A program made the translations under genes and the position numbers. This document shows, one piece after another, positions 130 to 3,569 of a stretch of DNA of 3,569 bases. Numbering within the stretch: position 1 is the stretch's first letter; every line of letters starts with the position of its first letter. Origin of the DNA: Escherichia phage MS2; the sequence record MT830620.1. One strand, given 5' to 3'. Under the pieces are notes generated by a model. That model made no database searches, was not told where the DNA came from, and worked only from the letters and a program-made list of their open reading frames with translations.

Positions 130-1311
130 ATGCGAGCTTTTAGTGTCCTTGATAAGGAATCCGAGACCTTCGTCCCCTCCATCCGCGTTTACGCTGATGG
201 GGAGGTCGTCGATAACTCGTTTTCCCTAAAATACCGTTCGAACTGGACCCCTGGTCGATTTAACTCGACTGGAGCCAGGACGAAGCAGTGGCACTATCCG
301 TCCCCTTATTCTAGGGGTGCGCTTAGCGTCACATCGGTAGATCAAGGCGCCTATAAGCGCTCTGGGTCATCGTGGGGTCGCCCGTACGAGGAGAAAACCG
401 GTTTTGGCTTCTCACTCGACGCACGCTCCTGCTACAGCCTCTTCCCTGTGAGTCAAAATATGACTTACATTGAAGTGCCGCAGAACGTTGCGAATCGGGC
501 GTCGACTGAAGTCCTGCAGAAGGTCACCCAGGGTAATTTCAACCTCGGTGTGGCCCTCGCAGAGGCCAGGTCGACAGCCTCACAACTCGCGACGCAAACC
601 ATTGCGCTCGTAAAGGCGTACACTGCCGCTCGTCGCGGCAATTGGCGCCAGGCGCTCCGCTATCTTGCCCTAAACGAAGATCGAAAGTTTCGATCGAAAC
701 ACGTGGCAGGCAGATGGTTGGAGTTGCAGTTCGGCTGGCTACCGCTAATGAGCGATATCCAGGGTGCATATGAGATGCTCACGAAGGTTCACCTTCAAGA
801 GTTTCTCCCTATGAGAGCCGTACGCCAGGTGGGCACTAACGTGAAGTTAGATGGCCGCTTGTCGTATCCAGCTGCAAACTACCAAACCACGTGCAACATA
901 TCGCGACGTATCGTGATATGGTTTTACATAAACGATGCACGCTTGGCTTGGTTGTCGTCTCTAGGTATCTTGAACCCACTAGGTATAGTGTGGGAAAAGG
1001 TGCCTTTCTCATTCGTTGTCGACTGGCTCCTTCCTGTTGGGAACATGCTCGAAGGCCTCACGGCCCCCGTAGGATGCTCTTACATGTCAGGAACAGTTAC
1101 CGACGTAATAACGGGTGAGTCCATCATAAGCGTTGACGCTCCCTATGGGTGGACAGTGGAGAGACAGGGCACTGCTAAGGCCCAGATCTCAGCCATGCAT
1201 CGAGGGGTACAATTCGTATGGCCAACAACTGGCGTATACGTAAAGTCACCTTTCTCGATGGTCCATACCTTAGATGCGTTAGCATTAATCAGGCAACGGC
1301 TCTCAAGATAG
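130..1311 (+). CDS. mat: Maturation (A) protein, the pilus-binding, single-copy virion protein; 393 aa
   Basis: ORF 130..1311 (ATG start, UAG stop). The translation (MRAFSVLDKESETFVPS...WTPGRFNST...LALIRQRLSR) is near-identical over its whole length to the MS2 A protein as I recall it. Same position and length (393 aa) as in MS2. Confidence 0.95.
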   Translation: MRAFSVLDKESETFVPSIRVYADGEVVDNSFSLKYRSNWTPGRFNSTGARTKQWHYPSPYSRGALSVTSVDQGAYKRSGSSWGRPYEEKTGFGFSLDARSCYSLFPVSQNMTYIEVPQNVANRASTEVLQKVTQGNFNLGVALAEARSTASQLATQTIALVKAYTAARRGNWRQALRYLALNEDRKFRSKHVAGRWLELQFGWLPLMSDIQGAYEMLTKVHLQEFLPMRAVRQVGTNVKLDGRLSYPAANYQTTCNISRRIVIWFYINDARLAWLSSLGILNPLGIVWEKVPFSFVVDWLLPVGNMLEGLTAPVGCSYMSGTVTDVITGESIISVDAPYGWTVERQGTAKAQISAMHRGVQFVWPTTGVYVKSPFSMVHTLDALALIRQRLSR

Positions 1312-1322
1312 AGCCCTCAACC

Positions 1323-1342
1323 GGAGTTCGAAGCATGGCTTC
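1323..1342 (+). promoter_or_regulatory. Coat gene RBS and initiator hairpin (SD GGAG 1323-1326; stem 1330-1334 GAAGC / 1338-1342 GCUUC with AUG 1335-1337 in the loop)
   Basis: Direct inspection of the inverted repeat flanking the coat AUG. A coat initiator hairpin presenting the AUG is described for MS2; the fold is not computed here. Confidence 0.6.
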
Positions 1343-1727
1343 TAACTTTACTCAGTTCGTTCTCGTCGACAATGGCGGAACTAGCGACGTGACTGTCGCC
1401 CCAAGCAACTTCGCTAACGGGGTCGCTGAATGGATCAGCTCTAACTCGCGCTCTCAGGCTTACAAAGTAACCTGTAGCGTTCGTCAGAGCTCTGCGCAAA
1501 ACCGCAAGTACACCATCAAAGTCGAAGTGCCGAAAGTGGCTACTCAGACCGTTGGTGGTGTGCAGCTTCCTGTAGCCGCATGGCGTTCGTATCTGAATAT
1601 GGAATTAACTATTCCCATCTTCGCAACGAACGACGATTGCGCGCTTATTGTTAAGGCGATGCAAGGTCTCCTAAAAGATGGAAACCCAATCCCCTCAGCA
1701 ATCGCAGCAAACTCCGGAATCTACTAA
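1335..1727 (+). CDS. cp: Coat (capsid) protein, 130 aa including the initiator Met; ends in tandem stops UAA UAG (1725-1730)
   Basis: MASNFTQFVLVDNGGT...KDGNPIPSAIAANSGIY matches MS2/R17-type coat protein. The true start is the AUG at 1335 with the SD at 1323-1326, not the upstream in-frame ATG at 1218 used by the ORF track. RNA-binding residues known from MS2 (V29, K43, T45, S47, R49, T59, K61, E63, Y85, N87) are all present. Confidence 0.95.
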   Translation: MASNFTQFVLVDNGGTSDVTVAPSNFANGVAEWISSNSRSQAYKVTCSVRQSSAQNRKYTIKVEVPKVATQTVGGVQLPVAAWRSYLNMELTIPIFATNDDCALIVKAMQGLLKDGNPIPSAIAANSGIY

Positions 1728-1905
1728 TAGATTCCGGCCATTCCAACATGAGGATTACCCATGTCGAAGACAACAAAGAAGTTCAACTCTTTATGTATTG
1801 ATCTTCCTCGCGATCTTTCTCTCGAAATTTACCAATCAATTGCTTCTGTCGCTACTGGATGCGGTGATCCGCACAGTGGAGACTTTACAGCAATTGCTTA
1901 CCTAA
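1678..1905 (+). CDS. lys: Lysis protein L (75 aa, single-gene lysis), +1 frame relative to coat, overlapping the coat 3' end and the replicase 5' end
   Basis: ORF 1678..1905 translates to METQSPQQSQQTPESTNRFRPFQHEDYPCRRQQRSSTLYVLIFLAIFLSKFTNQLLLSLLDAVIRTVETLQQLLT. This has the MS2 L architecture: a basic/polar N-terminal region, a hydrophobic transmembrane segment and the conserved Leu-Ser (LLLSLL) motif. Position is the same as in MS2. Confidence 0.92.
   Translation: METQSPQQSQQTPESTNRFRPFQHEDYPCRRQQRSSTLYVLIFLAIFLSKFTNQLLLSLLDAVIRTVETLQQLLT
1746..1764 (+). promoter_or_regulatory. TR translational operator hairpin (coat-protein binding site, replicase translational repressor and packaging signal): ACAUGAGGAUUACCCAUGU
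   Basis: Exact match to the canonical MS2 operator: stem 1746-1750 / 1760-1764, bulged A at 1751, G-C G-C upper stem, loop AUUA 1754-1757 (wild-type U at -5). The replicase AUG (1761-1763) lies in the 3' arm and the SD GAGG (1750-1753) in the 5' arm. Confidence 0.95.
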
Positions 1906-3398
1906 GGGATGAGTTGCTTACTAAGCATCCGTCGCTAGGTAATGGTAATGACGAGGCGACCCGCCGGGCTTTAGCTATCGCTAAGCTCCGGGAGGCGAAT
2001 GAGCGATGTGGCCAGATTAATAGGGAAGGTTTCCTACATGACAAATCCTTGTCATGGGATCCGGATGTTTTACAAACCAGCATCCGTAGCCTTATCGGCA
2101 ACCTTCTTTCTGGTTATCGCTCGTCGTTGTTTGGGCAATGCACGTTCTCCAACGGTGCCTCAATGGGGCACAAGTTGCAGGATGCAGCGCCTTACAAGAA
2201 GTTCGCTGAACAAGCAACCGTTACCCCCCGCGCTCTGAGAGCGGCTCTACTGGTCCGAGACCAGTGTGCGCCGTGGATCAGACACGCGGTCCGCTACAAC
2301 GAGTCATATGAATTTAGGCTCGTCGTAGGGAACGGAGTGTTCACAGTTCCGAAGAATAACAAAATAGATCGGGCTGCCTGCAAGGAGCCCGATATGAATA
2401 TGTACCTCCAGAAGGGAGTCGGCGCCTTTATAAGACGTCGCCTCAAATCTGTGGGTATAGACCTGAATGATCAGACGATCAATCAGCGTCTAGCTCAACA
2501 AGGCAGCATAGACGGCTCATTAGCGACGATAGACCTATCGTCAGCTTCTGATTCCATCTCTGACCGCCTGGTATGGAGTTTCCTCCCACCTGAGTTATAT
2601 TCATATCTCGATCGTATCCGCTCCCACTACGGAATCGTAGATGGAGAGACGGTACGATGGGAACTATTTTCCACAATGGGAAATGGGTTTACTTTCGAAC
2701 TAGAGTCCATGATATTTTGGGCTATAGTGAAAGCAACTCAAATCCATTTTGGTAACGCCGGAACCATAGGCATCTACGGGGACGATATTATATGTCCCAG
2801 TGAGATTGCACCCCGTGTGCTAGAGGCACTTGCCTACTACGGTTTTAAACCGAATCTTCGTAAAACGTTCGTGTCAGGGCTCTTTCGCGAGAGCTGTGGC
2901 GCGCACTTTTACCGTGGTGTCGATGTCAAACCGTTCTACATCAAGAAACCAGTTGACAATCTCTTCTCCCTTATGCTGATCATGAATCGGCTTAGGGGGT
3001 GGGGCGTTGTCGGAGGTATGTCAGATCCGCGCCTTTATAAGGTTTGGGTACGACTGTCCTCCCTGGTTCCATCGATGTTCTTCGGTGGGACGGACCTTGC
3101 TGCCGACTACTATGTAGTAAGCCCTCCAAATGCTGTCTCAGTTTATACAAAGACTGCGTATGGTAGGTTACTCGCGGATGCCCGTACCTCGGGTTTCCGT
3201 CTTGCTCGTATCGCCAAAGAGCGAAAGCACTTTAGCGAGAAGCATGACAGTGGTCGCTACATAGCATGGTTCCATACTGGAGGTGAAATCACCGATAGTA
3301 TGAAGTCCGCTGGCGTGCGCGTAATGCGCACTTCGGAGTGGCTGACGCCGGTTCCCACATTCCCTCAGGAGTGTGGGCCAGCGAGCTCTCCTCGGTAG
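1761..3398 (+). CDS. rep: RNA-dependent RNA polymerase (replicase beta subunit), 545 aa
   Basis: ORF 1761..3398. YGDD catalytic motif at nt 2775-2786 (GTIGIYGDDIICP). The sequence MSKTTKKFNSLCIDLPRDLSLEIYQ... matches the MS2 replicase as I recall it; same coordinates as in MS2. The stop codon UAG is at 3396-3398. Confidence 0.96.
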   Translation: MSKTTKKFNSLCIDLPRDLSLEIYQSIASVATGCGDPHSGDFTAIAYLRDELLTKHPSLGNGNDEATRRALAIAKLREANERCGQINREGFLHDKSLSWDPDVLQTSIRSLIGNLLSGYRSSLFGQCTFSNGASMGHKLQDAAPYKKFAEQATVTPRALRAALLVRDQCAPWIRHAVRYNESYEFRLVVGNGVFTVPKNNKIDRAACKEPDMNMYLQKGVGAFIRRRLKSVGIDLNDQTINQRLAQQGSIDGSLATIDLSSASDSISDRLVWSFLPPELYSYLDRIRSHYGIVDGETVRWELFSTMGNGFTFELESMIFWAIVKATQIHFGNAGTIGIYGDDIICPSEIAPRVLEALAYYGFKPNLRKTFVSGLFRESCGAHFYRGVDVKPFYIKKPVDNLFSLMLIMNRLRGWGVVGGMSDPRLYKVWVRLSSLVPSMFFGGTDLAADYYVVSPPNAVSVYTKTAYGRLLADARTSGFRLARIAKERKHFSEKHDSGRYIAWFHTGGEITDSMKSAGVRVMRTSEWLTPVPTFPQECGPASSPR

Positions 3399-3538: not shown

Positions 3539-3569
3539 GGTAACTAGCTGCTTGGCTAGTTACCACCCG
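3539..3569 (+). other. 3' terminal hairpin (10-bp stem GGUAACUAGC 3539-3548 / GCUAGUUACC 3555-3564, loop UGCUUG) followed by a single-stranded 3' tail ACCCG
   Basis: Perfect inverted repeat seen directly. The levivirus 3' end is a terminal hairpin plus an unpaired ...CCC(A) tail used for replicase initiation; here the last base is G. Confidence 0.8.

Follow-up and report, generated by a model that had tools for sequence, protein, structure and literature searches.

The open reading frame (ORF) at 1678-1905 of the window, by which we mean the complete 3569-nt stretch of DNA that was analyzed, is almost certainly (probability about 97%) an orthologue of L, the lysis gene of MS2, carried by a natural MS2-like phage (Emesvirus zinderi) of the DL16/J20/FrSaffron lineage, and no feature of the sequence speaks against this. 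It is the textbook overprinted lysis gene, ordinary and already known, and its exact product is NCBI entry QNI21283.1, named 'lysis protein [Escherichia phage MS2]', so it is not novel. This L carries little weight as a discovery, and it is useful as a clean positive control, as the variation between isolates reproduces the experimental domain map of the protein.

Genome layout and the L reading frame

The window comprises the complete genome of an MS2-like phage (Emesvirus zinderi) with the four-gene layout of an MS2-type levivirus. A megablast search against 50,697 phage records returned 299 matching records, of which DL16 and DL1 were the closest, and all carried the names of Escherichia or Enterobacteria phages or of Emesvirus, except for four 'ssRNA' records. 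Over the whole window the identity was 95.3% to DL16, 95.2% to DL1, 94.8% to FrSaffron, 94.6% to J20, and 92.0% to the MS2 RefSeq genome (NC_001417). All four proteins are exact matches to NCBI entries QNI21282.1-QNI21285.1, which belong to a 3569-nt record named 'Escherichia phage MS2', and the gene coordinates coincide with the annotation of MS2, R17, ST4, M12, DL16, J20, and the phages with Fr names. The window is thus a natural isolate that has been deposited and annotated but is not among the phage records searched, and a search for contigs encoding exactly this L gave no match. The four genes are as follows:

130-1311, plus strand: maturation protein (match to Pfam Phage_mat-A)
1335-1727, plus strand: coat protein (Pfam Levi_coat, E = 1.6e-66), the final 50 nt of which overlap L
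1678-1905, plus strand: L, single-gene lysis protein (sgl), an ORF of 75 codons plus TAA (Pfam PF11125; PHROG 8450)
1761-3398, plus strand: replicase beta-subunit (Pfam RNA_replicase_B, E = 8e-214), the initial 145 nt of which overlap L

The L frame starts with ATG, ends with TAA, and is translated into the 75-aa protein METQSPQQSQQTPESTNRFRPFQHEDYPCRRQQRSSTLYVLIFLAIFLSKFTNQLLLSLLDAVIRTVETLQQLLT. Division of the start positions by three leaves a remainder of 0 for both coat and replicase and of 1 for L, which places L in the +1 frame relative to both. The overlap between coat and L amounts to 50 nt when the coat stop codon is included, and that between L and replicase to 145 nt, including the L stop codon. 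These recomputed values agree with the earlier note, which had described a 75-aa ORF in the +1 frame with overlaps of exactly these lengths. Its statement that three genes share the interval 1678-1905 is correct in that L overlaps both the coat and the replicase gene, but the sharing is pairwise only, since the 33 nt at 1728-1760 code for L alone and not a single nucleotide is common to all three genes.

ORF length was considered as evidence for L and rejected, since two further plus-strand ORFs of comparable length occur by chance in alternative frames of the window, at 891-1118 (75 aa) and 1999-2238 (79 aa). Neither is conserved: both are broken by stop codons in other strains, whereas the L frame is open in all 14 genomes that were compared. 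What lifts L above chance is therefore homology and conservation, and not its length. Minus-strand ORFs, such as the one at 1651-1776 (41 aa), were set aside, as the minus strand of leviviruses is not known to be translated.

L belongs to the MS2 lysis protein family

The L protein matched the Pfam family PF11125 (Phage_MS2_lysis) over the entire profile (positions 1-54 of 54) with 129.1 bits, against a cut-off of 25, and E = 5.6e-38, and PHROG 8450 with E = 1e-45. In MS2, R17, DL16, J20, and other phages, the orthologous ORF occupies the same coordinates and carries the annotation lysis protein. Together, the PF11125 match and these annotated orthologues bear out the earlier identification as a single-gene lysis protein. 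Alignment to MS2 L gave 91% identity with exactly seven changes (R4Q, F5S, A14E, R19F, K23Q, E61D, and T68E), of which five fall within residues 1-23 and the C-terminal tail holds the other two. The first two of these account for the N-terminal METQSP in place of the METRFP of MS2, a difference that the earlier note had stated correctly. None of the residues is unique to the L of the window, as every change relative to MS2 recurs in another isolate: Q4 is also found in J20 and FrSaffron, S5, E14, F19, Q23, and E68 in the DL16 clade, and D61 in M12 and fr. Because the carriers are plaque-forming isolates, each of these substitutions is compatible with lysis.

To describe the variation along the protein we used an alignment of the window with 13 group I genomes (14 in total), and the variability figures given below leave out fr and thus refer to 13 MS2-like strains. 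The protein can be divided into the following segments:

1678-1746, plus strand: variable polar N-terminal part, L residues 1-23, predicted to be disordered (pLDDT 50-57)
1747-1857, plus strand: invariant core, L residues 24-60, with the hydrophobic segment (38-60) and the LS motif; 0/37 residues vary
1783-1899, plus strand: predicted long single alpha-helix, L residues 36-74 (AlphaFold2 single-sequence model)
1819-1824, plus strand: LS dipeptide Leu48-Ser49, codons CTC TCG, located by protein alignment
1858-1902, plus strand: C-terminal tail, L residues 61-75, with E61D and T68E relative to MS2; moderately variable (4/15)

The hydrophobic segment was judged by the Kyte-Doolittle mean over 19 residues and by helix prediction. 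The best 19-residue window, at residues 40-58, reached 1.74 and so exceeded the usual 1.6, and the mean over 11 residues was 3.14 at residues 38-48, the sole uniformly apolar stretch. K50, N53, and Q54 fall within the best 19-residue window, so the segment is not a clean transmembrane helix. AlphaFold2, run on the single sequence, predicted one helix at residues 36-74 with a pLDDT of 90-96 over residues 41-75 and gave low confidence for the N-terminus, which in this model is presumably disordered; as a plain helix, the model contributes little. The conserved transmembrane segment proposed from the letters of the sequence is thus supported, since the hydrophobic stretch passes the Kyte-Doolittle criterion, lies within the predicted helix, and is identical to that of MS2 L. 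The same proposal had included a conserved LS motif, the loss of which would have spoken against the assignment; Leu48-Ser49 is unchanged in all 15 aligned L proteins, including those of fr (76% identity) and BZ13 (38%). A search of the PDB did not find a solved L structure, the best match having a meaningless E value of 0.73. For MS2 L, with the same hydrophobic segment, insertion into membranes and oligomerization have been reported in nanodiscs, and the C-terminal 35 residues are sufficient (PMC10688784).

RNA hairpins around the N-terminal part of L

The following RNA elements are present:

1643-1708, plus strand: lysis hairpin, from the predicted fold and covariation (name and role from PMC11979748 and PMC6071253)
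1714-1737, plus strand: coat-terminator hairpin, a 10-bp stem with loop CUAA and a fold of -13.7 kcal/mol (the CT structure of PMC11979748)
1725-1730, plus strand: tandem coat stop codons UAA UAG, 47 nt 3' of the L AUG
1729-1764, plus strand: replicase translational operator (TR) hairpin (Rfam RF02359, 60.6 bits against a gathering score of 40)

In the predicted lysis hairpin the L AUG (1678-1680) is situated at the junction of loop and stem, and the Shine-Dalgarno-like GG at 1665-1666 is paired. The predicted fold is identical in the 13 MS2-like strains, with a stability of -18.8 kcal/mol in the window and -16.6 kcal/mol in MS2, and three of its pairs show compensatory changes, such as 1658-1691, which is either G-C or A-U. 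This hairpin is known to control L expression (PMC11979748), and it is also described in PMC6071253, which cites Schmidt et al. 1987 for it. The coat-terminator hairpin holds the coat stop codon UAA (1725-1727) in its loop and the UAG (1728-1730) in its 3' arm, and its pair 1718-1733 is C-G, A-U, or G-C depending on the strain. The UAA was invariant in all 14 genomes, while the following UAG was kept in the 13 MS2-like strains and is GAA in fr. The operator, which is the binding site of the coat protein, is embedded in L codons 18-29; its core hairpin extends over 1746-1764 and contains the replicase AUG at 1761, and it is identical across all MS2-like strains. When the three helices were checked against the 14-genome alignment, standard pairs were found in 96.8% of the cells, compared to 30-45% when the partners were slid by 1-3 columns. 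Five helix pairs were changed on both sides, and none of 500 shuffles reached the observed values.

Three of the five N-terminal changes relative to MS2 (F5S, A14E, and R19F) fall on pairs of the lysis and coat-terminator stems. T1691C, which causes F5S, is compensated by A1658G, so that an A-U pair in MS2 is a G-C pair in the window, and C1718A, which causes A14E, is compensated by G1733U, one half of R19F, turning the C-G pair of MS2 into A-U in the window, with G-C in the GER isolate. The other half of R19F, C1732U, repairs an A.C mismatch. R4Q, F5S, and A14E are synonymous in the coat gene. The N-terminal sequence of L therefore seems to follow passively from synonymous drift in the coat gene and from maintenance of the RNA stems. 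The idea of such a 'regulatory overlap' reportedly goes back to Berkhout et al. in 1985. In this respect the MS2-like isolates show how covariation within RNA hairpins gives rise to amino-acid changes in a gene that overlaps in another frame.

Natural variation follows the functional domains of L

Among the 13 MS2-like strains, 11 of the 23 residues in the N-terminal part vary, compared to 0 of 37 in residues 24-60 and 4 of 15 in residues 61-75. The same distribution was visible from the side of the overlapping genes. Third-codon positions of replicase, which are second positions of L codons, were variable at 2 of 47 sites within the L overlap and at 273 of 498 sites outside it (Fisher p = 9.2e-13), and among all 145-nt stretches of the genome, variability is lowest in those that begin at 1733-1739. 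In the coat gene, 8 of the 16 third positions under L codons 1-16 were variable, compared to 50 of 114 elsewhere (p = 0.79). The N-terminus had been regarded as dispensable in the earlier note, and this agrees both with the variation of 11/23 residues compared to 0/37 in the core and with the coat synonymous sites beneath it being as variable as elsewhere. Also, the N-terminal half of MS2 L has been reported to be dispensable (Berkhout et al. 1985, as cited in bioRxiv 10.1101/2023.10.16.562596). Judged from the alignment, purifying selection on the part of L that overlaps replicase is strong, and the N-terminus drifts freely.

The four-domain model for L-like single-gene lysis proteins (Sgls), which PMC10229422 describes after Chamakura et al. 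2017, distinguishes a cationic N-terminus of variable length, an essential hydrophobic domain, an LS dipeptide at the C-terminal end of the latter, and a variable tail. In the L of the window, domain 2 is hydrophobic, domain 3 contains LS, and domain 4 is a variable tail. On the evidence of the aligned genomes, natural variation alone reproduces this published map, with a free N-terminus, a frozen hydrophobic and LS core, and a looser tail.

A frozen core could also arise if the conservation of 1740-1860 came mainly from RNA structure (the operator, the Min Jou long-range pairing, and the replicase start region) and from the replicase N-terminus, which would make the L core a by-product. The operator hairpin and the replicase initiation region are indeed located inside this interval, and another replicase region without a conserved overlapping ORF, the control region 1999-2238, is low in third-position variability as well (31% versus 59%), so a lowered synonymous variation does not point to dual coding alone. 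However, the L overlap, with 4% variable positions, lies far below the 31% of this control region, and low variability continues for approximately 100 nt beyond the operator and ends exactly at L residue 60, from where on positions vary again. Moreover, lysis by MS2 genetically requires L, and missense changes in the L core abolish function, according to the account of Chamakura et al. 2017 given in PMC10229422, and the LS dipeptide and flanking residues are retained even in BZ13, at 38% identity. In a provisional register of the Min Jou long-range pairing, A1744C was not accompanied by a compensatory change at 1427, a result to which we give no weight. We consider it very improbable that the L core is a by-product, and favor selection on L itself, to which RNA structure may add at 1761-1860.

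N-terminal charge and dependence on DnaJ

The N-terminal domain of L has been described as 'highly cationic' and linked to DnaJ dependence, which is removed by deletion of the domain (PMC10229422; bioRxiv 10.1101/2023.10.16.562596). In residues 1-36 the L of the window contains five K/R and four D/E residues, resulting in a net charge of +1, and the basic cluster R30-R31-R34 beside the hydrophobic domain is kept. The net charge of the same region is also +1 in J20, FrSaffron, and fr, +2 in DL16, +3 in DL1, and +5 in MS2 and ST4. Four of the changes relative to MS2 (R4Q, A14E, R19F, and K23Q) together remove four net positive charges, and this raises the question of whether the gene is the same and its regulation is altered, with a DnaJ dependence that is lower or differently timed than that of MS2 L. 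The charge of +1 in the window, J20, and FrSaffron and of +2 in DL16, compared to +5 in MS2 and ST4, would fit with this, as would the loss of DnaJ dependence upon deletion of the N-terminal domain (PMC10229422; bioRxiv 10.1101/2023.10.16.562596), and the MS2 mutation K23E (A1744G) has been reported to impair lysis, indicating that charge at this position can matter (PMC11979748). However, binding of DnaJ in vitro survives truncation up to residue 32 and weakens only at residue 35 (PMC10688784), which places the DnaJ binding site within residues 24-36, a stretch that is invariant in the window. The L of fr is likewise low in charge (+1) and has Q where it aligns with residue 23, and low charge in fr and in wild isolates points to a common natural state, from which MS2 is the outlier. 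Since DnaJ binding in vitro maps to residues up to approximately 32-35, which are invariant, an altered DnaJ phenotype is possible but unlikely.

Taken further, RNA structure and drift at synonymous coat sites would for the most part determine the N-terminal sequence of L, and the lineage would lyse with a DnaJ dependence or timing unlike that of laboratory MS2, and this, too, we regard as doubtful. Based on the sequence comparison, the DnaJ part of the MS2 mechanism may not be transferable unchanged to the L of the window. As the N-terminus is low in charge in most wild isolates, the 'highly cationic' domain of laboratory MS2 may be atypical, which matters for any generalization of the DnaJ model.

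Probable coupling to coat translation and expected lysis mechanism

Translation of L in MS2 is coupled to termination of coat translation (PMC12548453, citing Berkhout 1987 and Schmidt 1987), and this coupling functions at a spacing of -50 nt (PMC12548453). The route is debated for MS2, for which the evidence allows either re-initiation after back-scanning or opening of the hairpin by the ribosome as it terminates, and for fr scanning is favored (PMC12548453). The wording of the earlier note, in which ribosomes terminate at the coat stop and reinitiate, is acceptable, though it covers just one of these models. All prerequisites of the MS2 scheme are intact in the sequence and predicted structure of the window, namely a closed start site, the -50 nt spacing, and the tandem stop codons, and between 1678 and the coat stop there was no other ATG or GTG in the L frame.

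From the work on MS2 and fr, the following sequence of events would be expected. The lysis hairpin would close the L AUG, so that free ribosomes cannot start there, and a small fraction of the coat ribosomes that terminate at 1725-1730 would melt the hairpin, slip back by 47 nt, or do both, and then initiate at 1678. The L protein would then build up slowly, in proportion to coat synthesis. Its disordered polar N-terminal domain would bind DnaJ and modulate the timing, and its C-terminal helix would enter the inner membrane and oligomerize. Finally, L would trigger autolysis without blocking peptidoglycan synthesis, as a type II or 'L-like' Sgl. For MS2 it has been reported that L contains the LS motif, is lytic when expressed alone, and does not inhibit peptidoglycan synthesis when it lyses the cell (PMC10229422; bioRxiv 10.1101/2023.10.16.562596), and that DnaJ, acting on the N-terminal domain, is a modulator and not a member of the core pathway (PMC10229422).

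Comparison with known lysis systems

The closest relatives are found in the DL16 group. The L proteins of DL16, DL54, FrHenna, and FrBlood (ABO33462.1 etc.) and of FrSaffron (WZB35604.1) are 97% identical to that of the window, and J20 L (ABQ02457.1) is 95% identical; all of these fall into the same 90% cluster as the window L. Two differences separate the window from DL16 L (R4Q and E61D), and two separate it from FrSaffron L (I16T and E61D).

MS2 L itself (NC_001417.2 1678-1905; YP_009640126.1) has the same coordinates, length (75 aa), frame, and overlaps as the L of the window, residues 24-60 are identical, and the lysis hairpin, the UAA-UAG stop codons, and the operator are shared. The two differ in that the lysis hairpin is predicted to be 2.2 kcal/mol more stable in the window, the N-terminal charge is +1 instead of +5, and the coat-terminator stem is perfectly paired, whereas that of MS2 contains an A.C mismatch.

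The L protein of fr (CAA33137.1, 71 aa) is 76% identical, with the same core, LS motif, and C-terminus; it likewise has Q opposite residue 23 and D opposite residue 61, and it is also coupled to coat termination (PMC12548453). However, its start codon is located 12 nt further downstream, resulting in a spacing of -38 nt versus -50 nt, with a CUG aligned with the AUG of the window, and the local hairpin fold is unlike that of the window. Further away, the L proteins of group II leviviruses (BZ13/GA/KU1) share the position at the coat-replicase junction, a hydrophobic domain that ends in LS, and the four-domain layout (PMC10229422), but they show 38% identity, are shorter, and begin at the coat stop, whereas the L of the window begins 50 nt before it.

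Outside this family, the type I Sgls or 'protein antibiotics', phiX174 E, Qbeta A2, and phage M Lys, resemble L in being single small proteins that lyse the cell without a muralytic enzyme, and phiX174 E is likewise overprinted and dependent on a chaperone (SlyD). Type I Sgls are without sequence similarity to L, and they inhibit defined steps of lipid II synthesis or flipping (MraY, MurA, and MurJ) and block peptidoglycan synthesis, whereas L does not block it (bioRxiv 10.1101/2023.10.16.562596).

Alternative-frame ORFs and residues particular to the window

As controls for the lysis gene L (75 aa, 1678-1905), two other alternative-frame ORFs of L-like length were followed through an alignment of the window with 13 group I genomes:

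891-1118, + strand, 75-aa GTG ORF inside the maturation gene, equal in length to L
1999-2238, + strand, 79-aa ATG ORF in an alternative frame inside the replicase gene

The ORF at 891-1118 is uninterrupted in the window alone, with one or two internal stops in 13/13 other genomes. It is a chance ORF, and serves as a negative control for L. Besides the window, eight genomes of the DL16 clade keep the ORF at 1999-2238 open, and stops interrupt it in MS2, R17, ST4, M12, FrSaffron, and fr. The third-codon variability of the replicase gene is lowered across this interval (25/80 versus 248/418, p = 4e-6), which is more likely related to RNA structure than to a gene.

Several residues were found in the window alone among the genomes compared, namely replicase V298, maturation protein F362, and coat Ser17 (codon 17, 1383-1385), the latter being Gly in all 13 other genomes and the sole coat residue unique to the window. 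The L overlap holds replicase C34 and G40. C34 is caused by the change at 1860 that also gives L D61, a change shared with M12, and G40 reflects a G at 1879 versus an A in DL16, which is synonymous in L (V67).

Position 1744 and the L start codon

Position 1744, at L codon 23, lies in the presumed 3' arm of the Min Jou long-range pairing. Most isolates, fr among them, share C1744 (L Q23) with the window, and MS2, R17, ST4, M12, and DL1 carry A1744 (L K23). A compensatory change for 1744 was sought at position 1427, and none was seen. In laboratory MS2, A1744G (K23E) has been described as a 'cheater' with impaired lysis (PMC11979748).

At the start of L (1677-1680), the German metagenomic isolate L006 (LT898437.1) reads AGUG versus GAUG, which would make GUG its L start codon. 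In the coat gene, codon 115 (Asp114 in mature coat protein) is then AGU, for Ser, in place of GAU, for Asp. Either L naturally starts at a non-AUG codon in this isolate, or the sequence contains an assembly error.

The deposited record and the MS2 reference

All four window proteins are identical to QNI21282.1-QNI21285.1, from a 3569-nt record named 'Escherichia phage MS2', and the best nucleotide identity to the window in the INPHARED phage collection was 95.3%, with no record higher, thus the window is a deposited isolate that is absent from INPHARED. It ends at position 3569 with ...ACCACCCG, and fr and DL54, relatives with a retrieved 3' end, terminate with ...ACCACCCA. BLAST alignments to 3569-nt records all stop at 3568, and an artefact of sequencing or of a primer may account for the terminal base of the window.

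The MS2 RefSeq genome NC_001417.2, when rebuilt from synthetic DNA, was reportedly not infectious, whereas isolate sequences were (2026 preprint, PMC13596492), which makes isolates the safer reference for comparisons 'to MS2'. Since ST4 is identical to the RefSeq in the L region, and R17 differs by R19C only, the conclusions on the L of the window are unaffected by this problem.
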